Counted from the stretch's first letter, positions 19,584-59,993 are shown. The stretch is 64,000 nt of DNA from Gammaproteobacteria bacterium (GCA_016712635.1 JADJQS010000008.1:139268-203267), one strand, 5' to 3'. Made by a program: numbers and translations. Notes: generated by a model not told the origin, from the letters alone.

Positions 19584-19666
19584 GGGACAGATTTATTACC
19601 CTCGGACGGGGACAGATTTATAAATCTGTCCCCTATACCGCTTCCGGGGAAAATAAATCTGTCCCC
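19584..19666. repeat. REP-like palindromic element cluster (half unit, full unit GGGGACAGATTTATAAATCTGTCCCC at 19608-19633, half unit)
   Basis: A perfect 26-bp palindrome with flanking half-sites. Member of the dispersed family (see findings). Confidence 0.85.
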
Positions 19667-19678
19667 ATTTTTAGATGA

Positions 19679-22114
19679 TTACTTGATGCACACCGTGCGT
19701 ACGGTGTGCAGGTCGGTGATGCCCTGGAGCACCTTCTCGATACCGTCCTGCTTCAGGGTGCGCATTCCCTCCTGCAGGCCCAGCGCCAGCATCTCCGAGA
19801 CCTGGGCGTGATCCAGGATCTGCTTCTTGAGGGCGTTGGTCGCGTAGAGCAGCTCGTGGATGCCGAGCCGGCCTTTGTACCCTGTGTCGTCGCAGGTCTT
19901 GCAGCCCTTGGGGTGGTAAAGCGTGAACTTGCCGTTCGTGGTGAACTTCTCCCGCCATTCCTTCAGCACAGTGTCGTATAACGCCTGTTTCTCGTCCTCC
20001 GGCGCTGTGGGCGCAACCAGCTCGTAGCAGTATTCCGCGACCATTTCCCGGATTTCCTCCTCCGTCGGCTCGAACGGTACCTTGCAGGCGACGCACAGGC
20101 GCTTGGCGAGGCGCTGGGCCAGGATGCCGATCAGGGCGTCGGCGAAGTTGAACGGATCCATGCCCATGTCGAGCAGGCGGGTGACTGTCTCCGGCGCCGT
20201 GTTGGTGTGCAGGGTGGACAGCACCAGGTGGCCGGTGAGCGAGGCCTCGATGCCGATGCTGGTGGTCTCCTTGTCGCGCATCTCGCCGACCATGATGATG
20301 TCGGGGTCGGCGCGCAGGAAGGAGCGCATCGCCGCCGCGAAGTTGAAGCCGATCTTCGGCTTCACTTCCACCTGGCGCAGGCCGCGCTGGGTGATTTCGA
20401 CCGGGTCCTCCGCGGTCCAGATCTTCACGTCGGGTGTATTCAGGTATCCGAGCACGGAGTGCAGCGTGGTCGTCTTGCCCGAGCCCGTCGGGCCGCACAC
20501 GAAGATCAGGCCGTAGGGTTTGGAGATCATGCGCTTCAGGGCGGTCATGTTGCGCTCCGACAGCCCGATCTTCTCCAGCGGCACCGGCTCGCCGCTCGCC
20601 AGGATGCGCATGACCACGTCTTCCATGTCGGCCGCCGTCGGGATGGTGGCGACGCGCAGCTCGATCTTCAGCATGCCGAATTTCTTGAAGTCGATCTTGC
20701 CGTCCTGCGGCTTGCGTTTCTCCGAGATGTCGAGTTCGGCCATGATCTTGATGCGCGCGACCACCGCGCTGCGCATCTTGGCCGGGATCTCGTAGTAGTT
20801 CTTCAGGTCGCCGTCCTTGCGGATGCGCACGATGGTCTTCTTCTTGCCCGGATAGGGTTCGATGTGGATATCGGATGCGCCCTGCTGGTAGGCATCGATG
20901 ATGATCTTGTTGACCAGCTTGACGATGACGTTGTCCTGCACCGAGGTCTCGCCGTATTCCTCCTCCTTGCCGTCCTTTTCGGTGTCGTCATACCCGAGGG
21001 TGAAGTCGTCGAGCGACTCGCTTTCGATGGCGGACATCGAGTACAGCGTCGTGATGGTGTGCTCGATCTCCTCCTTCGAGGCCATCACCGGCTCGACATA
21101 CAGGTTGGAATGGAAGCGCACGGCGTCGAGCGCCTCGCGGTCCATCGGGTTTTCCAGCGCGATGACCAGCTTGTTGTTGAAGTAGTGCACCGGCACGATG
21201 CCGTGCTTGCGCACCAGGTCCTCGGGGATGTACTTGATCGCCTCCGGGTTGATCTTGAACTTGCCCAGGTCGATGAACGGGATGCCGAGCTTTTCGGACA
21301 GGGCCTGCATGATCTCGCCCATGTTGATGGTGCCGAGCTCCATCAGCACCTGGCCGATCTGCATGTTCTTGCCCTGGGTGCGGTACAGCTTCTGCGCCTC
21401 CAGGGCGTCGTCGAGATTCTGCTGCGTGATGAACTTTTCCTTCACCAGGATTTCGCCGAGGCGTAGCTTGGGGGCCGCCTTGTGGTGGCGGAGCACCTCC
21501 TCCAGCGCCTCGGTGGTCTCGACGTTCTTCAGCGCGGCGGCGTGCACCTCGGCCGAATCATCCACTAACGGCACCTCCACCGCCTCCGCCACCTCCGCCG
21601 CGGCGTCGGCCGGCGCCTCCGCGGGCGTCAGGCGATACTGCTCCGTCGAGGTGTGCGGCACGAAGGCGTGGCAATAGCGCTGGTTCGGCAGCATGGGGTA
21701 CAGGTAGAGCCCGCCGGCATCGCTGCGGTATCCGAGGGTGACGTCCGACAGCGTGCTGCCATCCTTCAGCTCGATCCGGTACTGGAGGATGCGCGAGCCC
21801 TGGTTGGCGGGTTGCGCGGCCTTTTCCGGCGCGAGCTGCTCCGGCGCCCACGCGCGCGGTTGCGGGAGCTGGAAATACCTGAACCTGGTGAAGGCGATGT
21901 CCTGGGTCGCCCCGCCGTCGACGGCGACGGAGATGGATTTTTCGTCGCGCTGGAACTTCTGCAAAGTCCCGGAGAGGGTGGTGCCGTCATGCAGGACCAG
22001 CTCGATCTGCTCCCCGGCCTTGAGGGCATTCTTGATATCGATCTCCGCCAGCGGTGGCGGCAGGATCGGAAGGATATGGCTGGGCTTGAGCTTCTGTGCC
22101 GGGGACGATGACAT
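19679..22114 (-). CDS. GspE/PilB/MshE-family secretion ATPase with c-di-GMP-binding MshEN-type N-domain and an additional roughly 220-aa N-terminal extension
   Basis: C-terminal Walker A (GPTGSGKTT), Asp/His boxes and tetracysteine region (CVACK...CKTCDDTGYKGR). The T2SSE_N region has two MshEN-type motifs (RLGEILVKEKFITQQNLDDALEAQ; QIGQVLMELGTINMGEIMQALSEK). The extra N-terminus carries two related modules (IELVLHDGTTLSG...; IELKDGSTLSD...). The true start is uncertain. Confidence 0.8.
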   Translation of the reverse strand: MSSSPAQKLKPSHILPILPPPLAEIDIKNALKAGEQIELVLHDGTTLSGTLQKFQRDEKSISVAVDGGATQDIAFTRFRYFQLPQPRAWAPEQLAPEKAAQPANQGSRILQYRIELKDGSTLSDVTLGYRSDAGGLYLYPMLPNQRYCHAFVPHTSTEQYRLTPAEAPADAAAEVAEAVEVPLVDDSAEVHAAALKNVETTEALEEVLRHHKAAPKLRLGEILVKEKFITQQNLDDALEAQKLYRTQGKNMQIGQVLMELGTINMGEIMQALSEKLGIPFIDLGKFKINPEAIKYIPEDLVRKHGIVPVHYFNNKLVIALENPMDREALDAVRFHSNLYVEPVMASKEEIEHTITTLYSMSAIESESLDDFTLGYDDTEKDGKEEEYGETSVQDNVIVKLVNKIIIDAYQQGASDIHIEPYPGKKKTIVRIRKDGDLKNYYEIPAKMRSAVVARIKIMAELDISEKRKPQDGKIDFKKFGMLKIELRVATIPTAADMEDVVMRILASGEPVPLEKIGLSERNMTALKRMISKPYGLIFVCGPTGSGKTTTLHSVLGYLNTPDVKIWTAEDPVEITQRGLRQVEVKPKIGFNFAAAMRSFLRADPDIIMVGEMRDKETTSIGIEASLTGHLVLSTLHTNTAPETVTRLLDMGMDPFNFADALIGILAQRLAKRLCVACKVPFEPTEEEIREMVAEYCYELVAPTAPEDEKQALYDTVLKEWREKFTTNGKFTLYHPKGCKTCDDTGYKGRLGIHELLYATNALKKQILDHAQVSEMLALGLQEGMRTLKQDGIEKVLQGITDLHTVRTVCIK

Positions 22115-22260
22115 GGCTTGTTCCTGAGTTTTCCCTTCATTATCAAGGGTCTGTGAGCGAATGGCCGGCGCACCGGCGTGCCGGCGCGGCCGGATGGCCG
22201 TTCCCTTCCAGGCCCCTGAGGCCGGGCAGCTATGCCCGGATTTTCAGACCCTTAGGCTAT

Positions 22261-23124: not shown

Positions 23125-23311
23125 ATCCCTGTTTCCTCGCCGCGCTGCGTCGTCGGATACGGCCGATTGTCACATATCCGGCGGCCGGATGAATTCCATT
23201 TTACATGCCCTCCGGATCGCGTCACCGCCGCCCCGGATCGCCATGGCATCCATGGGCGCAAATGCGGATAATTGGGGCACGACCCCAAACGGCACGGCAA
23301 GGAGAGAAGGC

Positions 23312-24465: not shown

Positions 24466-27069
<2,604 letters not shown>

Positions 27070-27104
27070 ATGATAAGCTGCTTGCTATTAGATAGGGTTC
27101 TACA

Positions 27105-27302
27105 ATGTTGGAAATCTTCAGCGACATAAAAAGCCATTTCGACAGCTTGCAAGATCGCCTTGATGTATTTGGGAAATATGGAGTTCAGGTTGAGGGGTGG
27201 TTGAAAGGAGAGCTCCTGTTTAAGCTAAGTAAAATGAAGGACGAAGGCCTTATATTCGATTTCGATCGAGAAGTGTTAATTATGGGGACTAAGAAAAGAT
27301 AG
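27105..27302 (+). CDS. hypothetical protein (low-GC islet; possibly the 5' fragment of a disrupted gene)
   Basis: 65-aa ORF in an AT-rich segment. A second open frame (27330-27620) without an ATG start follows, so the gene may be decayed. Confidence 0.3.
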   Translation: MLEIFSDIKSHFDSLQDRLDVFGKYGVQVEGWLKGELLFKLSKMKDEGLIFDFDREVLIMGTKKR

Positions 27303-27720
27303 ATCTGAGGATAACAACTAACGATAGGGCTCAGCATTGGGTAGAGTTAAAGAATTAGACCAGTAAACAAAAAAGGAAGGTCTTATGACCCAAAATTCTA
27401 CTTTGGTGATAAACACGTAGGCATTTTTAATGATGTCGAAAAACTTAAATCTATATCGGAACCAAAATGGTTGGTGATATTAATAACGCCCAATACGACT
27501 AATGAAAAATGGGAAGAAGGAGTTCGGATTTTTGAGATTAAATACAATATCAATATTGAATCACATCAATCGCCTTCAATGTTCCAGGAGAATTATTTCT
27601 TAGGGTTGATTAGCATAAAATAAACTGCGGAAGAAAAGCCAATGTAACGGTGTAAAGTCTTGCGCCGCTACAATTTCTTACTATAAGACTTAGCGTCGTT
27701 ATTTTAAGGGGGGCAATCCA

Positions 27721-28098
27721 ATGCGATATAGTTATTGGGTTACTAATAAGCATCTTCTGATATGCGCAGCATTCATCTTTACAATTCTTGTCGTATCATC
27801 CCAAGTCGTTGCAGGTAAATTATATAGCCCCGCTGAATTACGTAGCATGGTAAAAAGCGGTAATTATCCACCTCAAGGAAAGGTTACGGATACTGAGACC
27901 CAAGCAATGAGCTTTCGTGCTTGTACGGAGCAAATCAATCAGATTATAGGCTCCATAACGCCAGAATATCCTGTAGAAATAATTGTCGATACGCAGATCA
28001 TGAAAATGATAAAAGCGTGGACTAATGACGGAGCGATTACACTTACATGTAGCGGACCTGATGAAAAATTTACTTTCACCACGGCACCGTATAAATGA
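27721..28098 (+). CDS. hypothetical secreted/membrane-anchored protein (low GC)
   Basis: 125 aa with an N-terminal hydrophobic segment (LLICAAFIFTILVVSSQVVA). AT-rich codon usage is distinct from the host. Confidence 0.5.
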   Translation: MRYSYWVTNKHLLICAAFIFTILVVSSQVVAGKLYSPAELRSMVKSGNYPPQGKVTDTETQAMSFRACTEQINQIIGSITPEYPVEIIVDTQIMKMIKAWTNDGAITLTCSGPDEKFTFTTAPYK

Positions 28099-28204
28099 GC
28101 AAACAGAATAACATCATCAAAAGGGTCAGTACCCTTTGTTGATCGAGCTTTGATTCCCTTGATCCGTTCCTTGGCTCGAATGTCAGGCGCCGAGTGAGGC
28201 CAGA

Positions 28205-28408
28205 TTGGACATATCCTTATTACTCTGGGGTCTGCTGTTCAGCTCGATCGGGCTCGGCTTCTTCATCTATGGCAGGAAGCAGAAGGCGGTCGTTCCGCTG
28301 GTGTGCGGGCTGGCCCTCATGATCTATCCGTACTTCGTCTCCAGCACGTTTCCGCTCGTCTCGATCGGGGCCGTGCTCATGGCCATTCCGTATTTCGTCA
28401 GGATATAG
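28205..28408 (+). CDS. small hydrophobic membrane protein (67 aa, two TM helices)
   Basis: MDISLLLWGLLFSSIGLGFFIYGRK...ALMIYPYFVSS...LMAIPYFVRI shows an internal repeat of two TM hairpins. Confidence 0.45.
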   Translation: MDISLLLWGLLFSSIGLGFFIYGRKQKAVVPLVCGLALMIYPYFVSSTFPLVSIGAVLMAIPYFVRI

Positions 28409-28474
28409 GTCAAGATCAATGGGATCTTCTGGCGAAAGCAGTCAAAGAGCTGGTGGCTTCCTGGAGGCAGAGAA

Positions 28475-28763
28475 ATGAGCAAAGCGTACACTGAAATATC
28501 TGCCGGCCTGAAGGAGGCGATCTCCCACGCCAAGGGAAAGAAAACCAGGACTCAGGATGCATCGCCATGAACCTATCGACGTCAAGGCCATTCGCGAGAA
28601 GACCGGGATGAGCCAGCAGCGGTTCTGCGCAACCTTTGGGATTTCGCTTGGTACCCTGCGTCATTGGGAGCAGGGCTTGCGTGCCCCGAGAGGTGCGGCG
28701 CGGGTGTTGCTCAAGGTGGTTGCTAGTAACCCGAAGGTGGTAATGAAGGCAATTGGCGAATAG
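28475..28763 (+). pseudogene. HigA/NadS-like HTH antitoxin, frameshifted (N-terminal 31 codons in one frame, HTH body in +1 frame)
   Basis: MSKAYTEISAGLKEAISHAKGKK... aligns with the intact paralog at 29275 (EILEGIREIRRGEHG). The HTH (KAIREKTGMSQQRFCATFGISLGTLRHWEQGLRAPRGAARVLLKV) continues in the next frame. The break maps to an A4 run near 28533-28536. Confidence 0.6.
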
Positions 28764-28952
28764 CCGGGAATAAATGAGGGAGAATTATTTTTTCTGCCCC
28801 GGTTATTTCCGGATAAGACATTGGCTTTATTGATTTCAAGGTGACCGCTGTGTAATTTCTTTCGCGAAAAGAGATTTTGTTCCTGCTGTCAGCCACAGGG
28901 AGGTGGCCGCCATGATGTACAGCTCTGTTGCTTCGCTTGACGTTATACGTCA

Positions 28953-29282
28953 ATGACGTATAACATGCCGTTGTTCACCTTTATCGAAACGAAACTGTTT
29001 TCACGGCTGGCAAGCGATTATCTGTCGGATGAGGAATACGCCTTGCTGCAGGGTACGCTGGCCGCGAACCCGGAGACTGGAAATCTGGTGCCGGGTTCAG
29101 GCGGTGTGCGCAAGCTGCGCTGGGCGCAGCCGGGCCGGGGCAAGCGGGGCGGGGTGCGTGTCATCTACTATGTCAGGTCGAGTGCAGGCATGATCTGGAT
29201 GCTGACGATCTACGCGAAGAACGAGGCGCAGAATATTCCTGCGCACATCCTGCGCGAGATCCGGGAGGAGATCGATGGCTAA
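28953..29282 (+). CDS. type II toxin, RelE/ParE superfamily (HigB-like, toxin-first arrangement)
   Basis: 109 aa with KLRWAQPGRGKRGGVRVIYYV...MIWMLTIYAKNE, typical of HigB-like killer proteins. It overlaps the downstream HTH antitoxin gene by 8 bp. Confidence 0.7.
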   Translation: MTYNMPLFTFIETKLFSRLASDYLSDEEYALLQGTLAANPETGNLVPGSGGVRKLRWAQPGRGKRGGVRVIYYVRSSAGMIWMLTIYAKNEAQNIPAHILREIREEIDG

Positions 29283-29547
29283 GGCGAAGCGCAACGTCGG
29301 CGTGGAGATTCTCGAAGGCATCCGCGAGATCAGGCGCGGGGAGCATGGCCGCGTCATCAACCTGCCGTCCATCGCCGCCATTCGCGAAGGCACCGGCCTG
29401 TCCCAGTCCCGCTTTGCCGAATTGCTGGGTGTTTCCGTGCGCACGCTGCAGGAATGGGAACAGGGGCGCCGGGCGCCGACCGGCGCGGCGCGCACGCTGC
29501 TGATGATCGCGCACAGGAATCCGCGCGCCTTGCTGGATGTGTCTTGA
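29275..29547 (+). CDS. HigA/NadS-like HTH antitoxin
   Basis: IREGTGLSQSRFAELLGVSVRTLQEWEQGRRAPTGAARTLLMI is an XRE-type HTH with the W-E-Q-G-R motif. Confidence 0.75.
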   Translation: MAKAKRNVGVEILEGIREIRRGEHGRVINLPSIAAIREGTGLSQSRFAELLGVSVRTLQEWEQGRRAPTGAARTLLMIAHRNPRALLDVS

Positions 29548-29705
29548 AATGAGAGCCGGACAATCGGGCAGACCACGTCTTCAGGATTCGGAAGGATGGA
29601 GAAAGTGGGTTGGTACCTTTCTCTGCCAGCGGCAGTGTGGTCCGCTCCAAGGGATCAAAAAGCCACGTTGCAAAGCGGGTCGTCAAGCATCAGAAGGACA
29701 TGCAA

Positions 29706-30162
29706 ATTGGAAATATGGATAGACGCAGATGCATGCCCGGTTGTCGTAAAGGAGATTTTATTCCGGGCGGCAGAACGGACAAAAACCAGGGTAACGCTGG
29801 TTGCAAATCAGGATATTAAAATCCCGCCTTCAAGGTATGTTACCTGCCTGCGCGTGATGCCGGGTTTTGATGTTGCCGACAATGAGATTGTTAAGAGGGT
29901 AAATGACGGCGATCTGGTCATCACAAGTGACATACCCCTGGCGGATCTGGTTTTGACTAAAGGTGGTTGTGCCTTAAGCCCGCGGGGTGAGTTATTCACC
30001 CATGAAAATATCAAATCCAGGCTTAATATAAGAGACTTTATGGATACTCTGCGCAGCAGCGGTATACGCACAGGCGGGCCATCCACCCTGAGTCAAAGCG
30101 ATCGCAAGGCGTTCGCGGACCATCTCGATAAGTGGCTTTTCAATAAGCAGATAAATCTGTAA
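29706..30162 (+). CDS. YaiI/YqgE-like DUF188 (UPF0178) family protein
   Basis: [34 protein letters not shown]...[10 protein letters not shown]...[16 protein letters not shown] closely parallels E. coli YaiI. A TTG start is inferred because the ORF-track start at 29596 adds a non-homologous leader. Confidence 0.7.
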
Positions 30163-30260
30163 GTATTAGCTGCGGATCACCTGGTCCGGGGATAATCGGG
30201 TACAACCCCATTAAATCAACGTTGATGCAGGTATAGAATTGAGTTTCGGACGATGGAGGT

Positions 30261-30494
30261 ATGGATATGGCCGCTACTCTGAAGGAATTGGAACAGCTGG
30301 CTCGGGCCCTGGAGGCCGAGGAGCGGGCGAAACTGGCCGAGGCTCTGCTCGAGTCGCTGCACTCTCCGCTCTCGGACATCGAGGCGGCCTGGGCGCGGGA
30401 GATCGAAGACCGCGTCGCCGCTTTTGACCGTGGTGAAATGAAGAGTTACGCGGCTGAGGATGTGTTTGCGGAAGCGCGGCGCACATCGCGGTGA
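30261..30494 (+). CDS. addiction-module antitoxin (putative addiction module component, Phd/ParD-like, TIGR02574-type)
   Basis: 77 aa. LKELEQLARALEAEERAKLAEALLESL...IEAAWAREIEDRVAAFDRGEM is characteristic of this antitoxin family. It overlaps the toxin by 4 bp. Confidence 0.7.
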   Translation: MDMAATLKELEQLARALEAEERAKLAEALLESLHSPLSDIEAAWAREIEDRVAAFDRGEMKSYAAEDVFAEARRTSR

Positions 30495-30793
30495 AACACG
30501 CCAGGTTTGTTGCCGCCGCCCGGCGTGAGTTCCTGGCACAGGTAATCTACTACAACGAAGAAGAATCCGGACTTGGTGCCCGCTTTACGGCTGCGGTCGA
30601 AGAGGCTGTTATCCGGGCCCTTGCCTTCCCGCTCGCCGGGTCACCTGCGACCCGGAGCACGCGGCGAGTCTTTGTCAAAGACTTCCCCTTTGCGGTCGTA
30701 TATCGACCCCATGCCGACGGCATTACGGTGTTCGCGCTCGCGCATCACTCGCGCCAGCCGGGTTACTGGAAATTACGTGTTCAGGAGCGCTAG
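30491..30793 (+). CDS. type II toxin, RelE/ParE family
   Basis: 100 aa, GTG start overlapping the antitoxin stop. ...RVFVKDFPFAVVYRPHADGITVFALAHHSRQPGYW is a RelE/ParE fold signature. Confidence 0.7.
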   Translation: MKHARFVAAARREFLAQVIYYNEEESGLGARFTAAVEEAVIRALAFPLAGSPATRSTRRVFVKDFPFAVVYRPHADGITVFALAHHSRQPGYWKLRVQER

Positions 30794-30838
30794 ACAGTTG
30801 GCAGACAGGACGGGTGGTATTGTCACACAAGGAAAATC

Positions 30839-31438
30839 ATGGCGCTGTTCCTGAGTCTGTGGATCAAGCTGTTCTTCGTGCTGACGCCGTTCTTCGGACT
30901 CACGATGTTCCTCAGCATGACGGAAGGGTATGACGAGCACCGTCGGCGCAAACTCGCCCTGGCGGTGTCCGCGGCGGTGGCGATGCTGTGCCTGATCCTG
31001 TTTTTCGCCGGCCGGCAGATCTTTTCGCTGTTCGGCATCACGCTGGATTCTTTCCGCATCGGTGCCGGCGTGCTGCTGATGCTGTCGGGTATCGCGCTGG
31101 TGCAGGGCAGGGCGGGCGCGGCCGATGCCGCCCGCGAGGGCGATGTCGCGGTGGTGCCGCTGGCGATGCCGATCATCGTCGGTCCGGCCACCACGGGCAC
31201 GCTGCTCGTCATGGGGGCCGAGCTGAACACGGTGGCGGCCAAGGCCGTCGGCAGCCTGGCGCTGTTCGCCGCCGTGCTGTGCATGGCGGCGGTACTGCTC
31301 GCGGGTTCGTTTTTTCAGCGCCTGATGGGCGTCAGGGGTATCGCGGTCCTCAGCAAGCTGACCGGACTGATCCTGGCGGCACTGGCCGCGCAGATGATCA
31401 TGACGGGGATCCAGGGATTCATCGGCGTTCAGCCGTGA
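30839..31438 (+). CDS. MarC-family (UPF0056) integral membrane protein
   Basis: 199 aa, 6 TM. LFFVLTPFFGLTMFLSMTEG...MPIIVGPATTGTLLVMG matches MarC/YhgN family motifs. Confidence 0.8.
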   Translation: MALFLSLWIKLFFVLTPFFGLTMFLSMTEGYDEHRRRKLALAVSAAVAMLCLILFFAGRQIFSLFGITLDSFRIGAGVLLMLSGIALVQGRAGAADAAREGDVAVVPLAMPIIVGPATTGTLLVMGAELNTVAAKAVGSLALFAAVLCMAAVLLAGSFFQRLMGVRGIAVLSKLTGLILAALAAQMIMTGIQGFIGVQP

Positions 31439-31474
31439 CATCACCTCGAATCAAGCATCCAGGATAAAACGGCT

Positions 31475-31891
31475 TTATTGCCCCGTCGACTCGGGCAGCG
31501 AAAAATCCAGCGCCGCGACGATCCGGTTCAGGCGCCCCTGCTCGCCGCCGCCCAGCATCAGCTCCGCGTTGGCGGCGCCCGCGTTGCGGATCGAGAGTTC
31601 GATTTTCTCGATGAACAGCCGGCTGCACTCCGCGACCTTATCCTTGAGCAGTGCCAGCAGTAACGGGATATCCTCCGGCTTCTTCACCCACGCCTCGATG
31701 AAAAGGCCCTCCTTGACCTTGATCTTTGCGTTGGAGGCGTGTTTTCCCAGCAGGACATTGAAGATGGAGCACCAGTCCCCGGGGGCCTGGTGCGATAACC
31801 TGAAAAAGAGATCGATATAGGGTTCCTTCCTGATCCTTGGCGGCCGTTTGTCATCGATGCCGACGATCTGAATGTCACTGATACCCTCCAT
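31475..31891 (-). CDS. hypothetical protein
   Basis: 138-aa ORF with no recognised motif and moderate GC. It does not overlap any identified gene in this window. Confidence 0.4.
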   Translation of the reverse strand: MEGISDIQIVGIDDKRPPRIRKEPYIDLFFRLSHQAPGDWCSIFNVLLGKHASNAKIKVKEGLFIEAWVKKPEDIPLLLALLKDKVAECSRLFIEKIELSIRNAGAANAELMLGGGEQGRLNRIVAALDFSLPESTGQ

Positions 31892-32246
31892 TGCCTTGCC
31901 TCCATCGTGCGCCTGTGTGAATCAGGCCATCATCGTGCCGGATCGGCACCCATGCCATCGGGAAAACAACGAACAGTCGTGGAGAGGGGCGGGGTAGAGC
32001 CGGAGTGTCCATCGCCCCCATGTTAGCGGCCGCTGCGATGGGTTCAGCAGCGCTGTTTGCCGATATTCCGGGCCCGCCCAAAAGGCTCTTGCAGATGATA
32101 AGCATTGTTGCGTGGATCCCAAATCGGAGAATCCGGACAGGGGAATGTGCTTTCGCTATAATCCGACGAGCCTTGGCCGGAACATTCAAGGCGTCAGTAC
32201 CCGTTTTTCTTCTGCGTTGATCAATCAAATCGAACCCGGGATCCAG

Positions 32247-32588
32247 ATGAGCACCTTGCCCAAATGTCCGCAATGCAGTTCCGAATACACCTATGAAGAC
32301 GCGGGCATGTATATCTGCCCCGAATGCGCCCATGAATGGTCGCCGCAGGCCGCGGCGGAGGCGGTGGATGAGAAGCGCGTCGTGCGCGATGCCTACGGCA
32401 ACGAACTGAAGGACGGCGACTCGGTGACGGTGATCAAGGACCTGAAGGTGAAGGGATCCTCCGCCGTGGTCAAGGTCGGCACCAAGGTGAAGAACATCCG
32501 CCTCGTCGACGGCGACCACGACATCGACTGCCGCATCGACGGCGTCGGCGCGATGGGCCTGAAGTCGGAGTTCGTGAAGAAGGCCTAG
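32247..32588 (+). CDS. phnA: PhnA/YjdC zinc-ribbon protein
   Basis: [31 protein letters not shown]...[42 protein letters not shown] is the canonical PhnA. The ORF-track N-terminal extension is ignored. Confidence 0.88.
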
Positions 32589-32605
32589 GCTCCATTTATG
32601 TGTTA

Positions 32606-32630
32606 GGGGACAGATTTTAAATCTGTCCCC
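32606..32630. repeat. REP-like palindrome GGGGACAGATTTTAAATCTGTCCCC
   Basis: Perfect palindrome 18 bp after the phnA stop. Confidence 0.85.
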
Positions 32631-32942
32631 TTGTAGTCGTGTCCCCCTGTGGTCACGAATGATCTGGAGCGGAATTCAAGCGCGTAGGCATTGTGGGCAA
32701 GCGTTTGTTCGTGTTCCTGTCGGTCATGCTCCCGGTGGGGTGCTCTGCCCAGGCCGCTGAACAGGCATCCGGGCAAAGGCTCGATGAGGTCGCCGAACGC
32801 GGCGCAGCCGTGGCAGATCGACATCGCATATAGGGAACTGCCCGATGGCGCAGGCTCGACTACCCGGCCCGCGATGCGAAGCCGGTCGCCGCCATACACA
32901 AATCGCCGCTAACTGTTGTACCCGCGAGCCTGTGTTATCTGT

Positions 32943-32980
32943 GAAAAAAAAGCCCCTGCCACCGGGCGGTGACAGGGGCT
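32943..32980 (-). terminator. rho-independent terminator of cbbM (minus strand: AGCCCCTGTCACCgcccGGTGGCAGGGGCTTTTTTTT)
   Basis: GC-rich 12-bp stem followed by T8, 20 bp after the cbbM stop. This makes cbbM monocistronic. Confidence 0.8.
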
Positions 32981-33002
32981 CTGTTGCGGATGGACCCGCC
33001 GC

Positions 33003-34295
33003 CTACTTGAACTTCGCCAGCTTGTCGCGCCAGCCCGGGAAGAGCATGTCGGCGTCTTTCGGGAACGAGTAGAAGGCGCGCGCGAATTCGCGGTGCTCCT
33101 TGGCGTACTCGACCGGGTTGGCGCCGGCCTTCCAGCACTCATAGGACTGCCGCAGCGAGATGGCGCCGGCGGCCGGGCTGTCGATGTGGCCGTAGGAGCC
33201 GCCGCCGGCGGTGTTGACCAGGTTGCCGTGGCCGAGGTTCTGGAAGAAGCCCGGCAGGCGCAGCGCGTTCATGCCGCCGGAGATGATCGGCGTCGTGGGT
33301 TTCATTCCGTACCACTTCTGCAGGTACACCGGGCCGCGGCTCTCGTCGCGCTCGATCATGTAGGCAATGATCTTGTCGTCGCCTTCGCCTTCCATCTTGC
33401 CGTAGCCCATGGTGCCGACGTGGATGCCGGAGGCGCCCTGCAGACGGCTCATCTTTGCCAGTACGAACGCGGTGTAGCCGCGCTTGGACGAGGGCGAGGT
33501 GACGGCGCCGTGGCCGGCGCGGTGGTAGTGCAGGTACTGGTCGGGGTACTGGCGACGCGCTGTCGTCACCATGCCGGGGCCGCCGACATAGCCGTCCACC
33601 AGGAAGGCCAGCTTGTCCGCGTCGGAGCCGAAGGTCTCCAGCGCGAAGTCGGCGCGGGCGCACATCTCGTAGTGGTCGTCGGCCGTGATGTTGAGGGAGA
33701 ACAGCTTGGCCTCGCCGGTCTTGTCCTGCGCACGCTTCAGCGAATCGTAGACCAGCGGCAGCGTCTTCTTCAGAGGAGAGAACACCTGGTTGCCCTGCGG
33801 CTCGTCGTTCTTGATGAAGTCGCCGCCGAGCCAGAACTCGTACGCAGCCTTCGCGAAGGGCTCGGGACGCAGGCCCAGCTTGGGCTTGATGATGGTGCCG
33901 GAGATGTAACCGCCGTCCTTGATCGGGCGGCCGAGGATGCGCCACAGGTCGGAGATGTCCTTGGACGGGCCGTCGAACAGCTGGATCGCGCGCGGCGGCA
34001 CGTGGAAGTCGATCATTCTGCCGTATTCGATGTCGCCCATGCCCTGGTTGTTGCCGATGGTCAGGGTCAGGAAGGACACCATCATCATGCGGCCGTCGGT
34101 GACGTTGCGGTCGAACAGGTCCAGCGGATAGGCGATGCGCATGTCCTCGTTCTGCTCGTCGATGTAGTAGACGAGCGCGTCGACGCCCTTGGTGAAATCG
34201 TCGGTCGTGCTGACTTCCACGTTGGTGCCGGTGGACGATTCGGCGGCGAAATGCGCGGCGGCCTCCAGATAGCCATGGCCGGCCTTCGGCTTCAT
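33003..34295 (-). CDS. cbbM: ribulose-1,5-bisphosphate carboxylase/oxygenase, form II large subunit
   Basis: Near-collinear with Rhodospirillum rubrum CbbM ([28 protein letters not shown]...[14 protein letters not shown]...[13 protein letters not shown]...). The conserved N-terminus continues upstream but out of frame (see finding). Confidence 0.93.
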
Positions 34296-34659
34296 CTTGT
34301 AGGCGACCAGGATATGATTACCCTCGTTGATCAGGTCTTGTTCTTTGAGGGCAAGGTTTGCGTAACGTTTGGACTGGATCCATCTGATTCTCCCAATGAC
34401 GATAAATGACCGACAAAATGTGCGATTATAGGCGATCGGGAAAATCCAAGGAAGTCTGTATGGTTATTTATACTTACTCCAGGTCCGGATATGGCAACTG
34501 GGGTATGCGCTAGCTGATTGATTTACAACGTACTCTTCATGCAGTTCGCCCCGAGCATAGGGGATGAATGAGCCGGATTGCGGGTACGTTAGCGCCGGAC
34601 AGGGCGTGAGATGCCGACCGTGCGTACACGCTGATTCAAATCGTAAGGAGCAGTGTGAG

Positions 34660-34984
34660 CAGTCTGCCTGAATGCCCGCAGTGCAATTCCGGATACTCCT
34701 AATTAAGACTCGGGCAAATACATCTGCCCAGAATGTGCCCATGAATGTGGCCGCGGGGGGCGGTGAATGACAAGGGCGTGCGCGTGCCGCGGCAACAGCT
34801 GAAGGACGGCGACTCGGTGACAGTGATCAAGGTCCTGAAGGTGAAGGGCACGTCCACCGTGGACAAGGTCGGCACCAGGGAGAAGAACATCCGCCTCGTC
34901 GACGGCGATCACGACATCGACTGCCGCATCGACGGCATCGGCGGTATGGGCCTGATGTCGGAGTTCGTGAAGAAGGCCTGGCCG
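34660..34984 (+). pseudogene. decayed duplicate of phnA (internal stops/deletion in the 5' half; 3' 190 bp about 90% identical to intact phnA)
   Basis: Translation gives ...[95 protein letters not shown]. The nucleotide stretch was compared by eye with 32400-32588. Confidence 0.75.
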
Positions 34985-34985
34985 T

Positions 34986-35087
34986 AATATATTTGGGGTC
35001 AGAGTAAAAACCCCTTCCGGAGCTGCGTGGCTGAAGCCAGGCGCCGGGCTGGTGGGTGGCGAAGGTTTTTACTCTGACCCCAAATAT
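34986..35087. repeat. MITE-like hairpin element: perfect 24-bp terminal inverted repeats (ATATTTGGGGTCAGAGTAAAAACC ... GGTTTTTACTCTGACCCCAAATAT) around a 51-bp core
   Basis: Read directly from the sequence. It sits exactly at the junction between the phnA pseudogene and the dsrE-like gene. Confidence 0.8.
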
Positions 35088-35114
35088 GATTGGTAGATAC
35101 CCTGTGAGGCAGCC

Positions 35115-35435
35115 ATGAAACTCGGCGTCATCATCGAGACGAACGAACCCGAAACGGCCTGGAACGGCGTGCGCTTCTGCAACGCAGCGCTGAAGAAGGG
35201 TCATTCCGTGAAGCTGTTCCTGATGAGCGCAGGCGTCGAGATCGAGAATATCCGGGGCGGCAAGTACGACATTGTGCTCCAGCTCGAGGAGTTCTCCGTC
35301 AACGGCGGCAAAGTGCTCGCCTGCGGCACCTGCATGAAATCGCGCAACCAGTCCGAATCGGATGTCTGCCCGACCTCGACCATGAACGACTGCGTGGAAA
35401 TGGCGGAGTGGGCGGACAAGGTAGTGACGTTCTGA
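35115..35435 (+). CDS. DsrE/DsrF-like sulfur-relay family protein (cytoplasmic)
   Basis: 106 aa. MKLGVIIETNEPETAWNGVRFCNAALKKGHSVKLFLMSAGV...ACGTCMKSR has the DsrE/TusD fold with conserved Cys. Confidence 0.75.
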   Translation: MKLGVIIETNEPETAWNGVRFCNAALKKGHSVKLFLMSAGVEIENIRGGKYDIVLQLEEFSVNGGKVLACGTCMKSRNQSESDVCPTSTMNDCVEMAEWADKVVTF

Positions 35436-35630
35436 GCTGCCCCGGGCATGGCCTGAGACATGTCCCCGTGATGCTCACTGTTCAGCCTCCGGATAAGCCA
35501 TGACGTTTCCATGGATTCTGTTCCGCAGCGCGATGTTGCGCCGCCCGGCGCGCGGTATGGCAGGTTTTCCGGGCGGTCGATGATGCCTGTATAATCTGCC
35601 TCCGGTTCCTGTTATCACACGAGAGGCCGC

Positions 35631-38950: not shown

Positions 38951-39034
38951 GGGGACAGATTTCGGTGGTATCGGGGACAGATTTAAAATCTGTCCCCGTA
39001 TTGCCGCAAGGGGACGGATTTGAAATCCGTCCCC
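38951..39034. repeat. REP-like cluster (half unit; GGGGACAGATTTAAAATCTGTCCCC at 38973-38997; variant GGGGACGGATTTGAAATCCGTCCCC at 39010-39034)
   Basis: The palindromes were read directly. The variant unit carries paired compensatory changes. Confidence 0.85.
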
Positions 39035-41635: not shown

Positions 41636-41722
41636 GGGGACAGATTTACCTGCATGGGGACTACCTGCTGCTTGGGGACAGATTTGAAATCTGTCCCCGT
41701 CTGCCCGTGATAAATCTGTCCC
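41636..41722. repeat. REP-like cluster (half; GGGGACAGATTTGAAATCTGTCCCC at 41674-41698; half)
   Basis: Lies directly upstream of the hrpB start. Confidence 0.85.
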
Positions 41723-41734
41723 GGCATCCCCGCC

Positions 41735-46249: not shown

Positions 46250-46439
46250 CCCGCCCGGCGCTTCGGGCTGCGACATGGCCTGCCGCCGGCCGTGTGTAAA
46301 CCGCGCATCCCGTGTATACCCTTCTCCCGCGCCCGAAAATAAATCTGTCCCGGGTTTTGTAGTACAGTTTAGGGGCGTCCCGGCGTGGCAGGGGCGCGGA
46401 AGGGATGCTTTGATCACAACCGGTTCAGGGGGCGGCATC

Positions 46440-47964: not shown

Positions 47965-47999
47965 CACTTCCCCCCTGGCGGACTATATAGATCTGACTT

Positions 48000-48024
48000 G
48001 GGGCAGATTTATACATCTGTCCCC
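48000..48024. repeat. REP-like palindrome GGGGCAGATTTATACATCTGTCCCC (degenerate)
   Basis: Read from the sequence. It lies upstream of the pilZ-domain gene. Confidence 0.75.
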
Positions 48025-48146
48025 TTATTATGGGTTCAGCATAGCATCATCGGGGGGCGGGGGAGAAGCCGGGAGAGGCGGGGTGTAAGGCGTGAGGGGT
48101 GAGGAGGGAAGGTTAAAAGCCTTGTTTCCGCGGTAAGTCATTAGCC

Positions 48147-48172
48147 GGGGACAGATTTACAAATCTGTCCCC
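48147..48172. repeat. REP-like palindrome GGGGACAGATTTACAAATCTGTCCCC
   Basis: Perfect 26-bp palindrome 29 bp downstream of the acnA stop. Confidence 0.85.
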
Positions 48173-48200
48173 TTTGTGTCGTGTCTTGTCGCCTCGCCCC

Positions 48201-50999
<2,799 letters not shown>

Positions 51000-52844: not shown

Positions 52845-52853
52845 GGCGGTGGA

Positions 52854-55274: not shown

Positions 55275-55286
55275 CCCGGCCGCCGC

Positions 55287-55910: not shown

Positions 55911-55930
55911 CGGAGGCGGTTTCCCCAACA

Positions 55931-56061
55931 GGGGGACAGATTTCAAATCTGTCCCCGAACACCGTTGTCCCCGACCGCCGACGGATGAGCTTGAGATAAA
56001 TCGGGGACAGACTTCAAGTCTGTCCCTTTCCGTCATGGGGACGGATTTGAAATCCGTCCCC
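55931..56061. repeat. REP-like cluster of three full palindromes (55931-55956 GGGGGACAGATTTCAAATCTGTCCCC; 56003-56026 GGGGACAGACTTCAAGTCTGTCCC; 56037-56061 GGGGACGGATTTGAAATCCGTCCCC)
   Basis: Lies in the 5' leader of aspS. Two units are compensatory variants. Confidence 0.85.
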
Positions 56062-56149
56062 GAATATGCGGAAAGTGATAGAATACCCCGCTCAACCGGC
56101 CGCGGCCGGTTCGTGCTTCGTTTCCGACATCCAACTTTCAACTGAATCT

Positions 56150-57925
56150 ATGCGCACCCACTACTGCGGTCACGTCACCGAGGCCCTGGTCGACCAGGAG
56201 GTTGAACTCTGCGGCTGGATGCACCGCCGGCGCGACCACGGCGGCGTGATCTTCGTCGACCTGCGCGACCGCGAGGGCCGGGTGCAGGTGGTGTTCGATC
56301 CGACGGTGCCCGACAGCTTCCTGGTCGCGGAGAAGGTGCGCAGCGAATTCGTGCTGCGCGTCAAGGGTCGCGTGCGGCCGCGCCCGCCCGGCACCGTGAA
56401 CCCCGACCTGCCGACCGGCCGGGTCGAGGTGCTGTGCCGCGAACTGGAGATCCTGAACCCGGCGGAGACGCCGCCGTTCGTGCTCGACGAGGACAGCGAG
56501 GTGAACGAGGACGTGCGCCTGCGCTACCGCTACCTCGACCTGCGCCGGCCGCTCATGCTGCGCAACCTCACGCTGCGTTTCCAGGTGGCGCGCACGCTGC
56601 GCCGCCACCTCGAGGACCAGGGTTTCATGGAGATCGAGACCCCGATCCTGACCAAGTCCACGCCGGAGGGCGCGCGCGACTTCCTGGTGCCGAGCCGCAA
56701 CAGCCCGGGCGAATTCTATGCCCTGCCGCAGTCGCCGCAGCTGTTCAAGCAACTGCTGATGGTGGCGGGCATGGACCGCTATTACCAGATCGTGCGCTGC
56801 TTCCGCGACGAGGACCTGCGCGCCGACCGCCAGCCCGAATTCACCCAGCTCGACATCGAGACCTCGTTCCTCGACGACGAGCAGTTGATGACGCTGATGG
56901 AGCGCATGATCCGCGAACTGTTCGCGGAAGTGCTCGAGGTGGCGCTGCCCGACCCGTTCCCGCGCATGACCCACGCCGAGGCGGTGGCGCGCTTCGGCAT
57001 CGACCGCCCGGACCTGCGCATCCCGCTCGAGCTGACCGAGGTCACCGACCTGATGAAGGCGGTCGATTTCAAGGTATTTGCCGGCCCGGCCAACGACCCG
57101 CACGGCCGCATCGCCGCGCTGCGCCTGCCGCGCGGCGGCGAACTGACGCGCAAGGAGATCGACGACTACACCCAGTTCGTCGCCATCTACGGCGCGCGGG
57201 GGCTGGCCTACATCAAGGTCAACCAGCGCGCCGGCGGCCGCGACGGCCTGCAGTCGCCGATCCTCAAGTTCCTGCCCGACGACGTCATCGCGGCGATCCT
57301 CGAGCGCACCGGGGCGGAGGACGGCGACCTGATCTTCTTCGGCGCCGACAAGGCCAAGGTCGTCAACGAATCGCTCGCCGCGCTGCGCGTGAAACTCGGT
57401 CATGACCGCGGCCTGGTCGCGCACGGCTGGCGCCCGCTGTGGGTGGTCGATTTCCCGATGTTCGAGTGGGACGACAAGGGCAACCGCTGGGCCGCGCTGC
57501 ACCACCCGTTCACGCGGCCGCGCGTCCGGGACGCCGCCGAGCTGGAGGCCAGCCCGGGCCAGGCCACCTCGTTCGCCTACGACATGGTGCTGAACGGCAC
57601 CGAGGTCGGCGGCGGCTCGATCCGCATCCACCGCAGCGAGATCCAGTCGGCGGTGTTCCGCCTGCTCGGCATCAGCGACGAGCAGGCCGAGGCCAAGTTC
57701 GGCTTCCTGCTGCGCGCCCTCAAGTTCGGCTGCCCGCCGCACGGCGGCATCGCCTTCGGCCTCGACCGCCTGGTGATGCTGATGACGGGCTCGCCGTCGA
57801 TCCGCGACGTGATCCCCTTCCCCAAGACGCAGACCGGCGCCTGCCTGATGACCGATGCGCCATCGCCGGTCGACGAGGAGCAGTTGCGCGAACTCGGCCT
57901 CCGCATCCGCAAGGCGGCGCCGTAG
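56150..57925 (+). CDS. aspS: aspartate--tRNA ligase
   Basis: [43 protein letters not shown] plus class II motifs ([18 protein letters not shown]; GGGSIRIH). Confidence 0.95.
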
Positions 57926-58154
57926 CGGGATGCGCGGCGCAAGCCGCGGTGACGCAACGGGTTTTTATCCCGTGACCGTGTCATTGCGGCGCTGCTTTGT
58001 TAACATGGATGCCAGCCGCCTCTTGATATTCAGACTGACCGCAGCAAAGTTGTTCCAAACAGGCATGTAGCCCGGATGGCGCGCAGCACCTCCATCCGGG
58101 CTACGATTCTGATCCGACCTGCGATTTTGATTGATTGAGTGAGGTTGTAGCGCC

Positions 58155-59252
58155 ATGACCGCGAACGCCGCCGTCGTTCCGACCGCACCGGACGTCACCG
58201 GTGAGGAGTGGGAGGCCCGCATCCGCGCCGCCAAGGCCGCGCTGGGCGAGCGCCTGCTCATCCTCGGCCACCACTACCAGCGCGAGGAGGTCTACCGCCA
58301 CGCCGATGTGAGCGGCGACTCGCTCAAGCTGTCGCGCCAGGCGGCGGCCTCGCGCGCCGAATTCATCGTGTTCTGCGGTGTGCACTTCATGGCGGAGGTG
58401 GCCGACATCCTGACCCGGCCGGAACAGCGCGTCATCCTGCCCGACCTCAGCGCCGGCTGTTCCATGGCCGACATGGCGAACCTCGCCAAGGTCGAGCGCG
58501 CCTGGCGCGAGCTGGCCACCGTGCTCGCGCCGGACGAGACCGTGACGCCGGTCACCTACATCAATTCCGCCGCCGACCTCAAGGCCTTCTGCGGCCGCCA
58601 CGGCGGCATCGTCTGCACCTCGTCGAACGCCGGCCGCATCCTCGAGTGGTCGTTCGCGCGGCGCGCGAAGGTGCTGTTCTTCCCCGACCAGCACCTCGGC
58701 CGCAACACCGGCCACCGCATGGGTATCCCGCTCGACGAGATGGTGGTATGGGACTTCAACCAGCCGCTCGGCGGCCTGACGCCGGAGCAGATCCGGAATG
58801 CGCGCATCATCCTGTGGAAGGGCTTCTGTTCGGTGCACCAGATGTTCCGCCCCGAGCACGTCGACCGCTTCCTCGCGCAGTACCCGGAGGCGAAGGTCAT
58901 CTCGCACCCGGAATGCTCGTTCGAGGTGTGCCAGAAGTCGGACTTCGTCGGCTCGACCGAGTACATCATCCGGACCGTCGCCGATTCGGCGCCCGGCACG
59001 CGCTGGCTGGTCGGCACCGAGCTCAACATGGTGCAGCGCCTGCACGAGCGCCACCGCCACGAGGGCAAGTCCGTGCACTTCATGTCGCCGACGATCTGCA
59101 TGTGCTCGACCATGTTCCGCATCGACCCGCCGCATCTGTGCCGGGCGCTGGAGGCGCTGGTCGAGGGTCGCGTGATCAACCAGATCTCGGTGCCGGCGGA
59201 CGAGGCCGCCGAGGCGCGGCTGGCGCTGGAGCGGATGCTGGACCTGCCGTAG
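58155..59252 (+). CDS. nadA: quinolinate synthase A
   Basis: CGVHFMAE, CSMADMA and HPECS cysteine motifs. The overlapping 424-aa minus-strand ORF is spurious. Confidence 0.9.
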   Translation: MTANAAVVPTAPDVTGEEWEARIRAAKAALGERLLILGHHYQREEVYRHADVSGDSLKLSRQAAASRAEFIVFCGVHFMAEVADILTRPEQRVILPDLSAGCSMADMANLAKVERAWRELATVLAPDETVTPVTYINSAADLKAFCGRHGGIVCTSSNAGRILEWSFARRAKVLFFPDQHLGRNTGHRMGIPLDEMVVWDFNQPLGGLTPEQIRNARIILWKGFCSVHQMFRPEHVDRFLAQYPEAKVISHPECSFEVCQKSDFVGSTEYIIRTVADSAPGTRWLVGTELNMVQRLHERHRHEGKSVHFMSPTICMCSTMFRIDPPHLCRALEALVEGRVINQISVPADEAAEARLALERMLDLP

Positions 59253-59320
59253 GGGGACAGATTTCAAATCTGTCCCCTTCTCCTTTCGGTAAGGTATGGG
59301 GACAGACTTAAGTCTGTCCC
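59251..59320. repeat. REP-like cluster (GGGGGACAGATTTCAAATCTGTCCCC 59251-59276; GGGGACAGACTTAAGTCTGTCCCC 59297-59320)
   Basis: Starts at the nadA stop codon. Confidence 0.85.
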
Positions 59321-59328
59321 CATGTCCT

Positions 59329-59949
59329 ATGACGGTCATCTTCCTCCACGGCATCTGGATGACCGGCCCCGACATGGCGGTGCTGCGCCGCCGCGTGCGC
59401 GCCTGCGGTTTCCCGGTCCGGCAGTTTTCCTATCCGAGCGTACGCATCCCCCCGCGCGAGAACGCCGCGCGCCTGCAGCGCTGGCTCGCGGGCGTCGAGG
59501 CCGACACGGTGCATTTCGTCGCGCACAGCCTGGGCGGGCTGGTGCTGCGCTGGCTGCTGCACGATTTCCCCGCCCAGCGGCCCGGCCGCGTCGTCACCCT
59601 CGGCACGCCGCACGCCGGCAGCCGGGTCGCGGCGGCCTGCGTCCGGCGGCCGGTGCTGCGCCGGGTGCTGGGCGCGAGCGTGGAGCGGGGCCTGCTCGGC
59701 GACCTCCCGCCCTGGGACGGCACGCGCGAGCTCGGCGTCATCGCCGGTACGCGCGAATTCGGCATCGGGCGCTTCGTCACCCGCCTGGCGCCGCCCCACG
59801 ACGGCACGGTGGAGGTCGGCGAGACCTGCCTCGACGGCATGACGGATTTCGTCACCGTCCGCGCCACGCATCTGGGGCTGCTCTATTCCGCGGCGGCCGC
59901 GCGGCAGGTGTGCGCCTTCCTCGCCGGCGGGCGTTTCCAGGGTGGGTAG
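59329..59949 (+). CDS. alpha/beta-hydrolase fold protein (lipase/esterase-like, GHSLGG nucleophile elbow)
   Basis: MTVIFLHGIWMTG...VHFVAHSLGGLV. Confidence 0.7.
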   Translation: MTVIFLHGIWMTGPDMAVLRRRVRACGFPVRQFSYPSVRIPPRENAARLQRWLAGVEADTVHFVAHSLGGLVLRWLLHDFPAQRPGRVVTLGTPHAGSRVAAACVRRPVLRRVLGASVERGLLGDLPPWDGTRELGVIAGTREFGIGRFVTRLAPPHDGTVEVGETCLDGMTDFVTVRATHLGLLYSAAAARQVCAFLAGGRFQGG

Positions 59950-59993
59950 GGGACGGATTTGTCGGATAAGGGGACAGACTTAAGTCTGTCCCC
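59949..59993. repeat. REP-like cluster (half unit + GGGGACAGACTTAAGTCTGTCCCC 59970-59993)
   Basis: Read from the sequence. Confidence 0.8.

Follow-up and report, generated by a model that had tools for sequence, protein, structure and literature searches.

Palindromes in a 64-kb gammaproteobacterial window

Short perfect palindromes are dispersed through the intergenic DNA of a 64-kb stretch of a Gammaproteobacteria bacterium genome (GCA_016712635.1, JADJQS010000008.1:139268-203267). This whole stretch, called the window below, is the part of the genome that was read, and all copy numbers for the genome refer to it. It has a GC content of ~65% and comes from an autotrophic gammaproteobacterium with form II RuBisCO; its closest counterpart among the loci we fetched is a metagenome-assembled genome (MAG) labelled Gammaproteobacteria bacterium B8 (L082), with 72–77% nucleotide identity over syntenic genes. 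Each palindrome sets two 12-nt arms head to head with 0–2 nt between them, and the arm equals the outer 12 nt of GGGGACAGATTTATTTTC, the inverted repeat of TIRYT genes, which encode transposases akin to the REP-associated tyrosine transposases (RAYTs) of repetitive extragenic palindromic (REP) systems. The palindromes are probably short, non-autonomous derivatives of these transposase elements.

The gene map combines open reading frames (ORFs) called from third-position GC content (GC3) with NCBIfam names. The palindromes and arms lie on it as follows, in window coordinates; strand is given for solo arms, and palindromes carry none.

19583..19600, plus: outer left arm GGGGACAGATTTATTACC, 16/18 against the TIRYT terminal inverted repeat; pairs with 19649–19666
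19608..19633: 26-bp perfect palindrome, centre AT, nested within the outer arm pair
19649..19666, minus: outer right arm GGGGACAGATTTATTTTC, 18/18 against the TIRYT terminal inverted repeat; its solo 12-nt arm is at 19655 (minus)
32606..32630: lone 25-bp palindrome past the stop of a yjdM/phnA-like gene, with cbbM convergent
38951..38962, plus: solo 12-nt arm; the next palindrome follows 10 nt on
38973..38997: exact 25-bp palindrome
39010..39034: exact 25-bp palindrome with G7 in both arms (GGGGACGGATTT)
41636..41647, plus: solo arm in the hrpB leader, directly past a stop codon
41674..41698: 25-bp palindrome in the hrpB leader
41712..41723, minus: solo arm CGGGACAGATTT, continuing ...AT; pairs with 41636 in the fold
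46335..46352, minus: solo full-length repeat CGGGACAGATTTATTTTC, 17/18 against the TIRYT repeat; 12-nt arm at 46341 (minus)
47999..48024: degenerate palindrome TGGGGCAGATTTATACATCTGTCCCC, overlapping only an unlikely N-terminal extension of a small ORF
48147..48172: past the acnA stop, 26-bp palindrome around a central AC, itself inside a 25-nt inverted repeat of another sequence
55932..55956: 25-bp palindrome upstream of aspS
56003..56027: degenerate C10-variant palindrome, one arm mismatched (AGGGAC)
56037..56061: G7-variant palindrome directly ahead of the aspS ORF
59253..59277: 25-bp palindrome starting at the first base after the nadA TAG stop
59298..59321: C10-variant palindrome of 24 bp that lacks a centre base and adjoins the start codon (ATG) of the following gene
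59949..59960, plus: solo G7 arm overlapping the final base of a TAG stop
59970..59993: 24-bp C10-variant palindrome upstream of ruvC

The family is far too abundant to be a product of chance. Exact GGGGACRGAYTT arms occur 28 times, against a mean of 0.05 and a maximum of 1 in shuffled sequence, and 34 arms are found when up to two mismatches are allowed, all 34 of them within 19583–59993. The arms make 11 exact palindromes (24–26 bp) and two degenerate ones at ten loci, with seven solo arms left over. A first-pass annotation had described dispersed perfect palindromes at ten intergenic loci; all ten are present, its coordinates were right to within 1–2 nt (19583 rather than 19584, and 59253–59321 rather than 59251–59320), and its count of at least 18 full or half units was conservative. 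The element at 46338–46356 that it had read as a half-site is the solo full-length repeat listed above. Positions 1–19500 hold no palindrome unit, despite comparable intergenic gaps and two tRNA genes (5179–5253, Gln; 8974–9050, Met); an isolated GGGGACAG 8-mer at 1694–1701 is the sole trace of the motif there.

All ten loci lie between ORFs on the gene map, as first described, with the small caveat of the doubtful ORF extension over 47999–48024. Three are between convergent genes and the others between tandem genes: the 19.6-kb locus lies past a pilB-like gene and a short convergent ORF, the 39.0-kb locus is flanked by two minus-strand genes, and aspS itself spans 56066–57925. The recurrent peptides in antisense ORFs are indeed the translated palindrome, GGG ACA GAT TTS AAA TCT GTC CCC. 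One palindrome, 48147–48172, is also surrounded by a 25-nt inverted repeat of different sequence (48087–48111 and 48185–48209; AAGGCGTGAGGGGTGAGGAGGGAAG / CTTGTCGCCTCGCCCCTCACGCCTT, 84% complementary), whose right arm overlaps the acnA stop codon.

Units occur singly or two to three together, with irregular gaps of 9–122 nt. This irregular spacing, the spread over 40 kb and the perfect palindromes exclude a CRISPR array, as had already been concluded. An Rfam scan of the window returned the two tRNAs and nothing else. Chromosome sites of the parS, matS and NBS types, Tn3-family ends, attC, dif and sequencing-adapter artefacts were dropped, on sequence grounds only.

Units and clusters fold strongly. 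As DNA, every unit gives a strong hairpin, with z-scores between -5.7 and -10.3, and the cluster at 19578–19671 folds into one long hairpin whose outer stem, AAATGGGGACAGATTTATT / AAAATAAATCTGTCCCCATTT, is made of two full repeats. Solo arms face the adjoining palindrome in the pattern -> (-><-) <-; across the window and 141 related loci, left-side solo arms number 16 plus versus 7 minus, and right-side ones 22 minus versus 7 plus. The TTNAA centre of the palindrome resembles an anticodon stem-loop.

Variants change both arms together. The palindromes at 39010 and 56037 carry G7 in each arm and those at 59298 and 59970 carry C10 in each. Among 188 palindromes, position 7 reads AA in 140, GG in 40 and mixed in 8, and position 10 reads TT in 165, CC in 21 and mixed in 2.

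Terminal repeats of TIRYT genes

The arms belong to a described motif. RAYT-like genes with terminal inverted repeats (TIRs), rather than GTAG REPs, were reported by Di Nocera et al. 2013 (PMC3733652, BMC Genomics 14:522), who coined 'TIRtrons' for the structures and 'TIRYT' for the enzymes and found that many TIRs share GGGGWSAS and that some are moderately abundant as dispersed singles, dimers and clusters. Quentin et al. 2018 placed TIRYT as subclass 2.1 of the TnpA-REP-like Y1 transposases, with the motif GGGG[AT][CG]A[CG], noted helix-turn-helix (HTH) domains in this subclass and reported no REP-like sequences near its genes. The enzymes are probably, from size and host range, the Group 1 RAYTs of Bertels et al. 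2017, whose flanking 16-mers had ~12 occurrences. Arms in the window start with GGGGACAG or GGGGACGG; GGGGACAG fits GGGGWSAS, and arms with A7 match this TIR motif exactly.

The match extends beyond the motif. The window arm is identical to the outermost 12 nt of the TIRYT inverted repeat GGGGACAGATTTATTTTC, and three solo arms continue into the long repeat, matching it at 18/18, 17/18 and 16/18 positions where zero such matches are expected by chance. Clusters in the window have AAAT/ATTT flanks, identical to those on a soda-lake contig (L259, described below) that encodes a TIRYT gene.

TIRYT genes themselves are common. Queried with tkm1558, the TIRYT of Thioalkalivibrio K90mix (Di Nocera 2013, Additional file 5), the search returned 7859 proteins at E <= 1e-30. 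The 120 matches listed are ~190–260 aa long and carry Pfam Y1_Tnp in all but one case; among them, identity to the query is 72–94% in Thioalkalivibrio, Ectothiorhodospira and Aquisalimonas and 67–70% in Pseudomonas. TIRYT proteins score 46–52 bits against PF01797 (Y1_Tnp; cut-off 23), and H60, H62 and Y121 are invariant in the TIRYT alignment (A1). The best solved relative of the TIRYT profile is E. coli TnpA-REP (4ER8, E = 1.8e-7), and the NCBIfam RAYT equivalog model NF047646 gives 73.3 and 77.6 bits, below its cut-off of 80. On these scores TIRYT is placed as a sister of RAYT, not a member.

Inverted repeats bracket the genes in several genera. We inspected the DNA around nine tkm1558 homologues. 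The Aquisalimonas TIRYT gene (L234–L236) stands between the two arms of an inverted repeat, AAAGGGGACAGATTTATTTTC, that is perfect over 21 bp. Each of three TIRYT copies in P. fluorescens (L247) has AAAAAGGGGACAGATTTATTTTT upstream and GGGAAAATAAATCTGTCCCCTTTTT downstream, an arrangement seen likewise in a GC-48% metagenome organism (L237–L246) and in L248. Thioalkalivibrio (L232) and Ectothiorhodospira (L233) keep an intact upstream repeat and a degenerate downstream arm. The downstream repeat in L251 and L252 is the G7 variant GGGGACGGATTTATTT. Five lineages (L234, L247, L248, L251, L252) have a downstream repeat whose end is exactly 10 nt past the TIRYT stop (...AAA TAA ATCTGTCCCC); the TAA thus lies inside the repeat, and its last two bases are also the first two of the 12-nt tip found in the palindromes.

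One contig carries a TIRYT gene together with a dense repeat population. The soda-lake contig L259 (GC 0.64; also present in two MAGs) encodes a TIRYT 84% identical to tkm1558 and has 19 arms AAATGGGGACAGATTTATTTTCTCA in 18 kb, mostly arranged as inverted doublets of 66–177 bp. Three inverted doublets of 66–75 bp share a conserved spacer, and doublets of 147 and 177 bp directly flank the gene, the latter with G7 in both arms. Forms of decreasing length can thus be arranged in a graded series: the TIRtron of ~780 bp, doublets of 54–177 bp (L237, L248, L259), a 38-bp near-palindrome with 18-nt arms (L234, 5404–5441) and the 24–26-bp palindromes with 12-nt arms.

Tandem duplication multiplies arms beside TIRYT genes. 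Strain variants with an identical TIRYT protein (L237/L238/L239/L240/L245) differ by tandem duplications of 17, 40 and 42 bp, each with an arm, and a stretch ending GGAAATGGGGAC stands beside the gene twice in one and three times in the other of L259 and L262. Such duplication is a plausible source of additional arms in direct orientation.

The G7 arm bears on how the symmetric variants should be read. The first-pass annotation had described variants that change both arms and had taken them as a sign of selection; the variants are real, and the argument is weaker than it was stated. Because the G7 arm also stands next to TIRYT genes (L251, L252) and in the 177-bp doublet of L259, the variants may be sub-families copied whole, possibly served by paralogous enzymes, and not point mutations that were compensated in the other arm.

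Further elements of this kind turned up alongside. L248 has a second Y1_Tnp gene (12618–13313), 2 kb from the first, whose repeat shares the tip only (GGGGACAGGCCACGTTT / AAACGTGGTCTGTCCCC); both genes adjoin a filamentous-haemagglutinin/CDI toxin locus. L183 holds another TIRtron, with repeats GGGGTCAGTTCTCGCATTGT, and the C-terminus of its protein gives weak, sub-threshold matches to HTH families. The window contains a second GGGGWSAS-type element at 34989–35087, an intergenic pair of perfect 24-bp inverted arms, ATATTTGGGGTCAGAGTAAAAACC / GGTTTTTACTCTGACCCCAAATAT, 51 nt apart. Its family forms 45–75-bp doublets in at least 13 gammaproteobacterial MAG loci, sometimes around a GGGGAC palindrome (L057), and is probably the repeat of another TIRYT lineage. 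Window positions 26000–36000, between clpB (24466–27069) and cbbM (33003–34295, minus), have a GC content of 0.53–0.60, against ~0.66 elsewhere in the window, and many small ORFs; this segment may have been acquired.

Distribution among bacteria and viruses

The motif is not restricted to the window and also occurs in other genomes and in viral contigs. A scan of one-genome-per-species contigs yielded at least 120 stretches from at least ~73 assemblies, and at least 140 palindromes were counted in 0.86 Mb of loci. Labels of carriers within the Gammaproteobacteria include Thioalkalivibrio, Thiohalobacter, Thiogranum, Halorhodospira and Marinobacter; others are Syntrophales and other Desulfobacterota, Nitrospirota, Entotheonella, Coprothermobacterota, Chloroflexota, Thermoanaerobaculia, an actinomycete and a Clostridium. 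As most carriers are MAGs, any one of these labels may be mistaken; cultured isolates from two phyla are among the carriers. The GC content of palindrome-bearing loci ranges from 29% to 68%.

Viruses also carry the palindrome, on 20 contigs. A single 54-kb contig (IMGVR_UViG_3300033489_000011; L123, L124, L132) has at least 12 palindromes, many of them between co-directional genes and 10–25 nt upstream of a Shine-Dalgarno sequence and start codon. Ten viral-contig loci encode TIRYT homologues, and the GGGGACAG repeat occurs in none of them. A plasmid search with the padded palindrome found a site between catabolic genes on a Marinobacter plasmid and otherwise only chance 17-mers; tblastn of plasmids with TIRYT gave six records, none of which is that plasmid.

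The family is patchy rather than lineage-wide: the closest NadA relatives (up to 81% amino-acid identity) are encoded in 80 metagenome loci, together 0.99 Mb, and these contain no palindrome. What carriers share is the 24–26 bp alone, with unrelated flanks even inside one genome. Genes beside the palindromes do not recur either: all-vs-all BLASTP of 3949 ORFs from 120 loci found generic families only, with no member of them adjoining a palindrome, and a strict HUH...Y motif scan of all ORFs in the palindrome loci gave no match. Searches of the literature for the sequence strings returned unrelated primer matches only.

Some palindromes are lengthened by their surroundings. In 21 of the 188, against 3 of 188 in the control, the flanks extend the palindrome by at least 4 bp (4–25 bp) with non-conserved sequence, mostly at Syntrophales-like and viral loci (for example L004, L014, L026, L060, L124, L127 and L139). 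Such extension might reflect insertion into existing hairpins. At L014 2835–2858 the unit sits in a ~74-bp perfect palindrome, with 25-bp complementary flanks on each side and the variant outer arm GGGGACAGGTTT.

Origin of the palindromes and their place among known repeats

We consider it probable that the palindromes are non-autonomous, REP- and REPIN-like derivatives of TIRtrons, mobilised by TIRYT. The identity of arm and repeat, the association of gene and repeat in several genera and the presence of a TIRYT gene and dense doublets on one contig are direct observations; by comparison of forms, the palindrome looks like the shortest version of the inverted repeat doublets found near TIRYT genes. 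Flanking direct repeats of 3–8 bp are at or below chance (at 3 bp, 2/186 against ~3.7 expected), and such a lack of target-site duplication is as expected for Y1 transposases.

A plausible mechanism can be framed by analogy with the TnpA of IS200/IS605 and with E. coli TnpA-REP. The source would be a TIRtron, a single-copy Y1/HUH gene between inverted repeats beginning GGGGACAGATTTATTTTC. In single-stranded DNA, such as the lagging-strand template, a doublet could fold into a hairpin that mimics the paired TIRtron ends, and a TIRYT encoded elsewhere in the genome would bind it. The enzyme would cut and rejoin single strands without duplicating the target, letting copies spread to non-essential intergenic DNA, and selection would leave copies in intergenic DNA only. 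Local tandem duplication would then add arms in direct orientation. Copies in 3' untranslated regions and leaders would fold in mRNA and may alter its stability as a side effect rather than as their origin.

Several results weigh against this account. No RAYT or TIRYT gene was found by tblastn in the window or in 141 palindrome-bearing loci (~1 Mb); for the window, where 11 RAYT/TIRYT sequences gave zero matches, this agrees with the first-pass annotation; in other genomes a RAYT-like gene is tied to the same arm sequence. None of the loci with a visible TIRYT gene has a perfect 24–26-bp palindrome, so with no locus holding both forms the link rests on sequence identity and the graded series. 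Dispersed copies elsewhere have AAAA/TTTT flanks, whereas window copies have AAT/ATT or none. Copy-and-paste of a 25-bp unit fails to explain the 21 flank-extended palindromes. No excision or insertion event was observed among the loci compared, and one orthologous site is kept in two species (L031, L061) with the centre base alone changed; copies can thus be long-lived, and this site points to persistence, not to recent movement. We know of no biochemistry reported for a TIRYT enzyme.

An unlikely alternative is that the palindromes are operator-like duplex sites for a dimeric protein (a domesticated TIRYT C-terminal HTH, a regulator or a nucleoid protein), kept because they are useful in regulation, in chromosome organisation or as roadblocks. 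Perfect dyad symmetry around a 0–3-nt centre, strongly correlated arm variants, identical sequence in distant taxa and the site shared by L031 and L061 would all suit such a role, as would the many viral-contig sites directly upstream of ribosome-binding sites and the HTH domains of the transposase subclass (Quentin 2018), with the sub-threshold matches in L183. Yet sites also lie between convergent genes, where promoters are unexpected (19583–19666, 32606, 48147), and they form variable multi-unit clusters with solo arms and arm lengths graded from 12 to 24 nt. No regulator gene recurs beside the sites in 120 loci, and the 12-nt arm is part of a transposase gene's terminal repeat.

Slightly less probable still is a family of RNA hairpins under host selection as 3'-end stabilisers, processing sites or terminators, which would owe both spread and persistence to that function, independently of a transposase. 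Most copies do stand directly past stop codons or in leaders, the hairpins are stable, unrelated flanks lengthen the stem in some relatives, and E. coli REPs affect mRNA decay. However, a hairpin role would not require one and the same 24-nt sequence in Gammaproteobacteria, Desulfobacterota, Nitrospirota and viral contigs; neither solo arms nor solo repeats of full length can form hairpins, and nothing in this reading accounts for the exact match to the ends of transposase genes. Intrinsic terminators were rejected separately: there are 10 terminator-like sites in 41–60.5 kb, against 7.7 +/- 2.6 in shuffled sequence, and of ~13 units 4 are flagged, these having weak T tails, while most units lack a T-run. 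The elements may affect mRNA stability or termination as a by-product.

Miniature inverted-repeat transposable elements (MITEs) of a DDE-type insertion sequence with ends starting GGGGACAGATTT are very improbable. The terminal inverted repeats do start with GGGG, and arms that are nested or solo resemble MITE debris; these points are outweighed by target-site duplications of at least 3 bp no more frequent than chance, the absence of a recurring DDE transposase near the sites, a Y1/HUH transposase as the sole gene found bracketed by the repeat, and a length of 24–26 bp, far below that of known MITEs.

Among known repeats, the nearest relatives of the palindromes are the TIR families. Both have the GGGGWSAS outer motif and are dispersed as singles, dimers and clusters; some TIR families are self-complementary, as the window palindromes are, and the gene family is widespread across bacterial classes. 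A repeat bracketing a ~230-aa Y1/HUH gene, the TIRtron itself, is found here in relatives only. The differences lie in form, density and reach: the window has the outer 12 nt only, as a perfect 24–26-bp palindrome; it holds 13 palindromes and seven solo arms in 40 kb, where TIR families were called 'moderately abundant' (Di Nocera 2013); and the identical palindrome occurs in at least ~73 assemblies from several phyla.

REPs and the bacterial interspersed mosaic elements (BIMEs) and REPINs built from them are likewise short, clustered extragenic palindromes, mostly downstream of genes, with hairpin doublets and no target duplication. Their RAYT, like TIRYT, is a single-copy HUH-Y1 gene flanked by repeats, and the TIRYT profile is nearest to 4ER8, although TIRYT falls just under the NCBIfam RAYT cut-off. 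REP/BIME units have a GTAG/CGTC tag on an imperfect palindrome, whereas the window units have none and the flanks of the 188 palindromes are unconserved; being fully symmetric, window units have no orientation and hence no BIME-type alternation. REP sequences are usually lineage-specific, in contrast to a palindrome common to several phyla. The REP-type architecture first proposed therefore stands as to extragenic, clustered, hairpin-forming units and falls as to the tag and alternating orientation: the REP-like reading is essentially right, and its precise home is the TIR/TIRYT branch, not classical REP/BIME.

IS200/IS605 insertion sequences and their derivatives that lack the gene, palindrome-associated transposable elements (PATEs), resemble what is proposed here in using a Y1/HUH enzyme on single-stranded DNA hairpins, without target duplication, and in having short non-autonomous derivatives. 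IS200/IS605 ends are differing, imperfect sub-terminal hairpins rather than terminal inverted repeats; these elements are multi-copy with the gene inside, and PATEs are far longer than 25 bp.

The TIR/TIRYT branch is already known in outline (2013, 2018). The 12+12-nt palindrome, its local density and its identity across taxa and viruses appear to be undescribed in Di Nocera 2013, Quentin 2018 and Bertels 2017. For practical purposes, the 25-mer offers a concrete short substrate for TIRYT biochemistry, and its sequence, GGGGACRGAYTT-N0-3-AARTCYGTCCCC, is a simple pattern by which to annotate repeats that cause spurious antisense ORFs and assembly and annotation noise in many MAGs.

A bolder idea, which we hold only tentatively, is that one conserved TIRYT clade moves horizontally with a near-invariant recognition sequence and seeds REPIN-like populations in bacteria and phages, with the 24–26-bp palindrome as the minimal unit. 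If true, it would amount to a pan-bacterial REP system of identical sequence, would give that RAYT class its first abundant repeat partner and would have the smallest unit of its kind; the non-conserved complementary flanks (21/188) might then reflect insertion into hairpin tips or hairpin-templated repair.

REP-RAYT systems are a leading example of single-copy, vertically inherited transposases with a population of short repeats. TIRYT, the largest RAYT-like class, has been reported with modest or no repeat families, and here its terminal repeat reaches REP-like density. This suggests that the 12-nt tip can persist as a repeated unit, recurring in many phyla.

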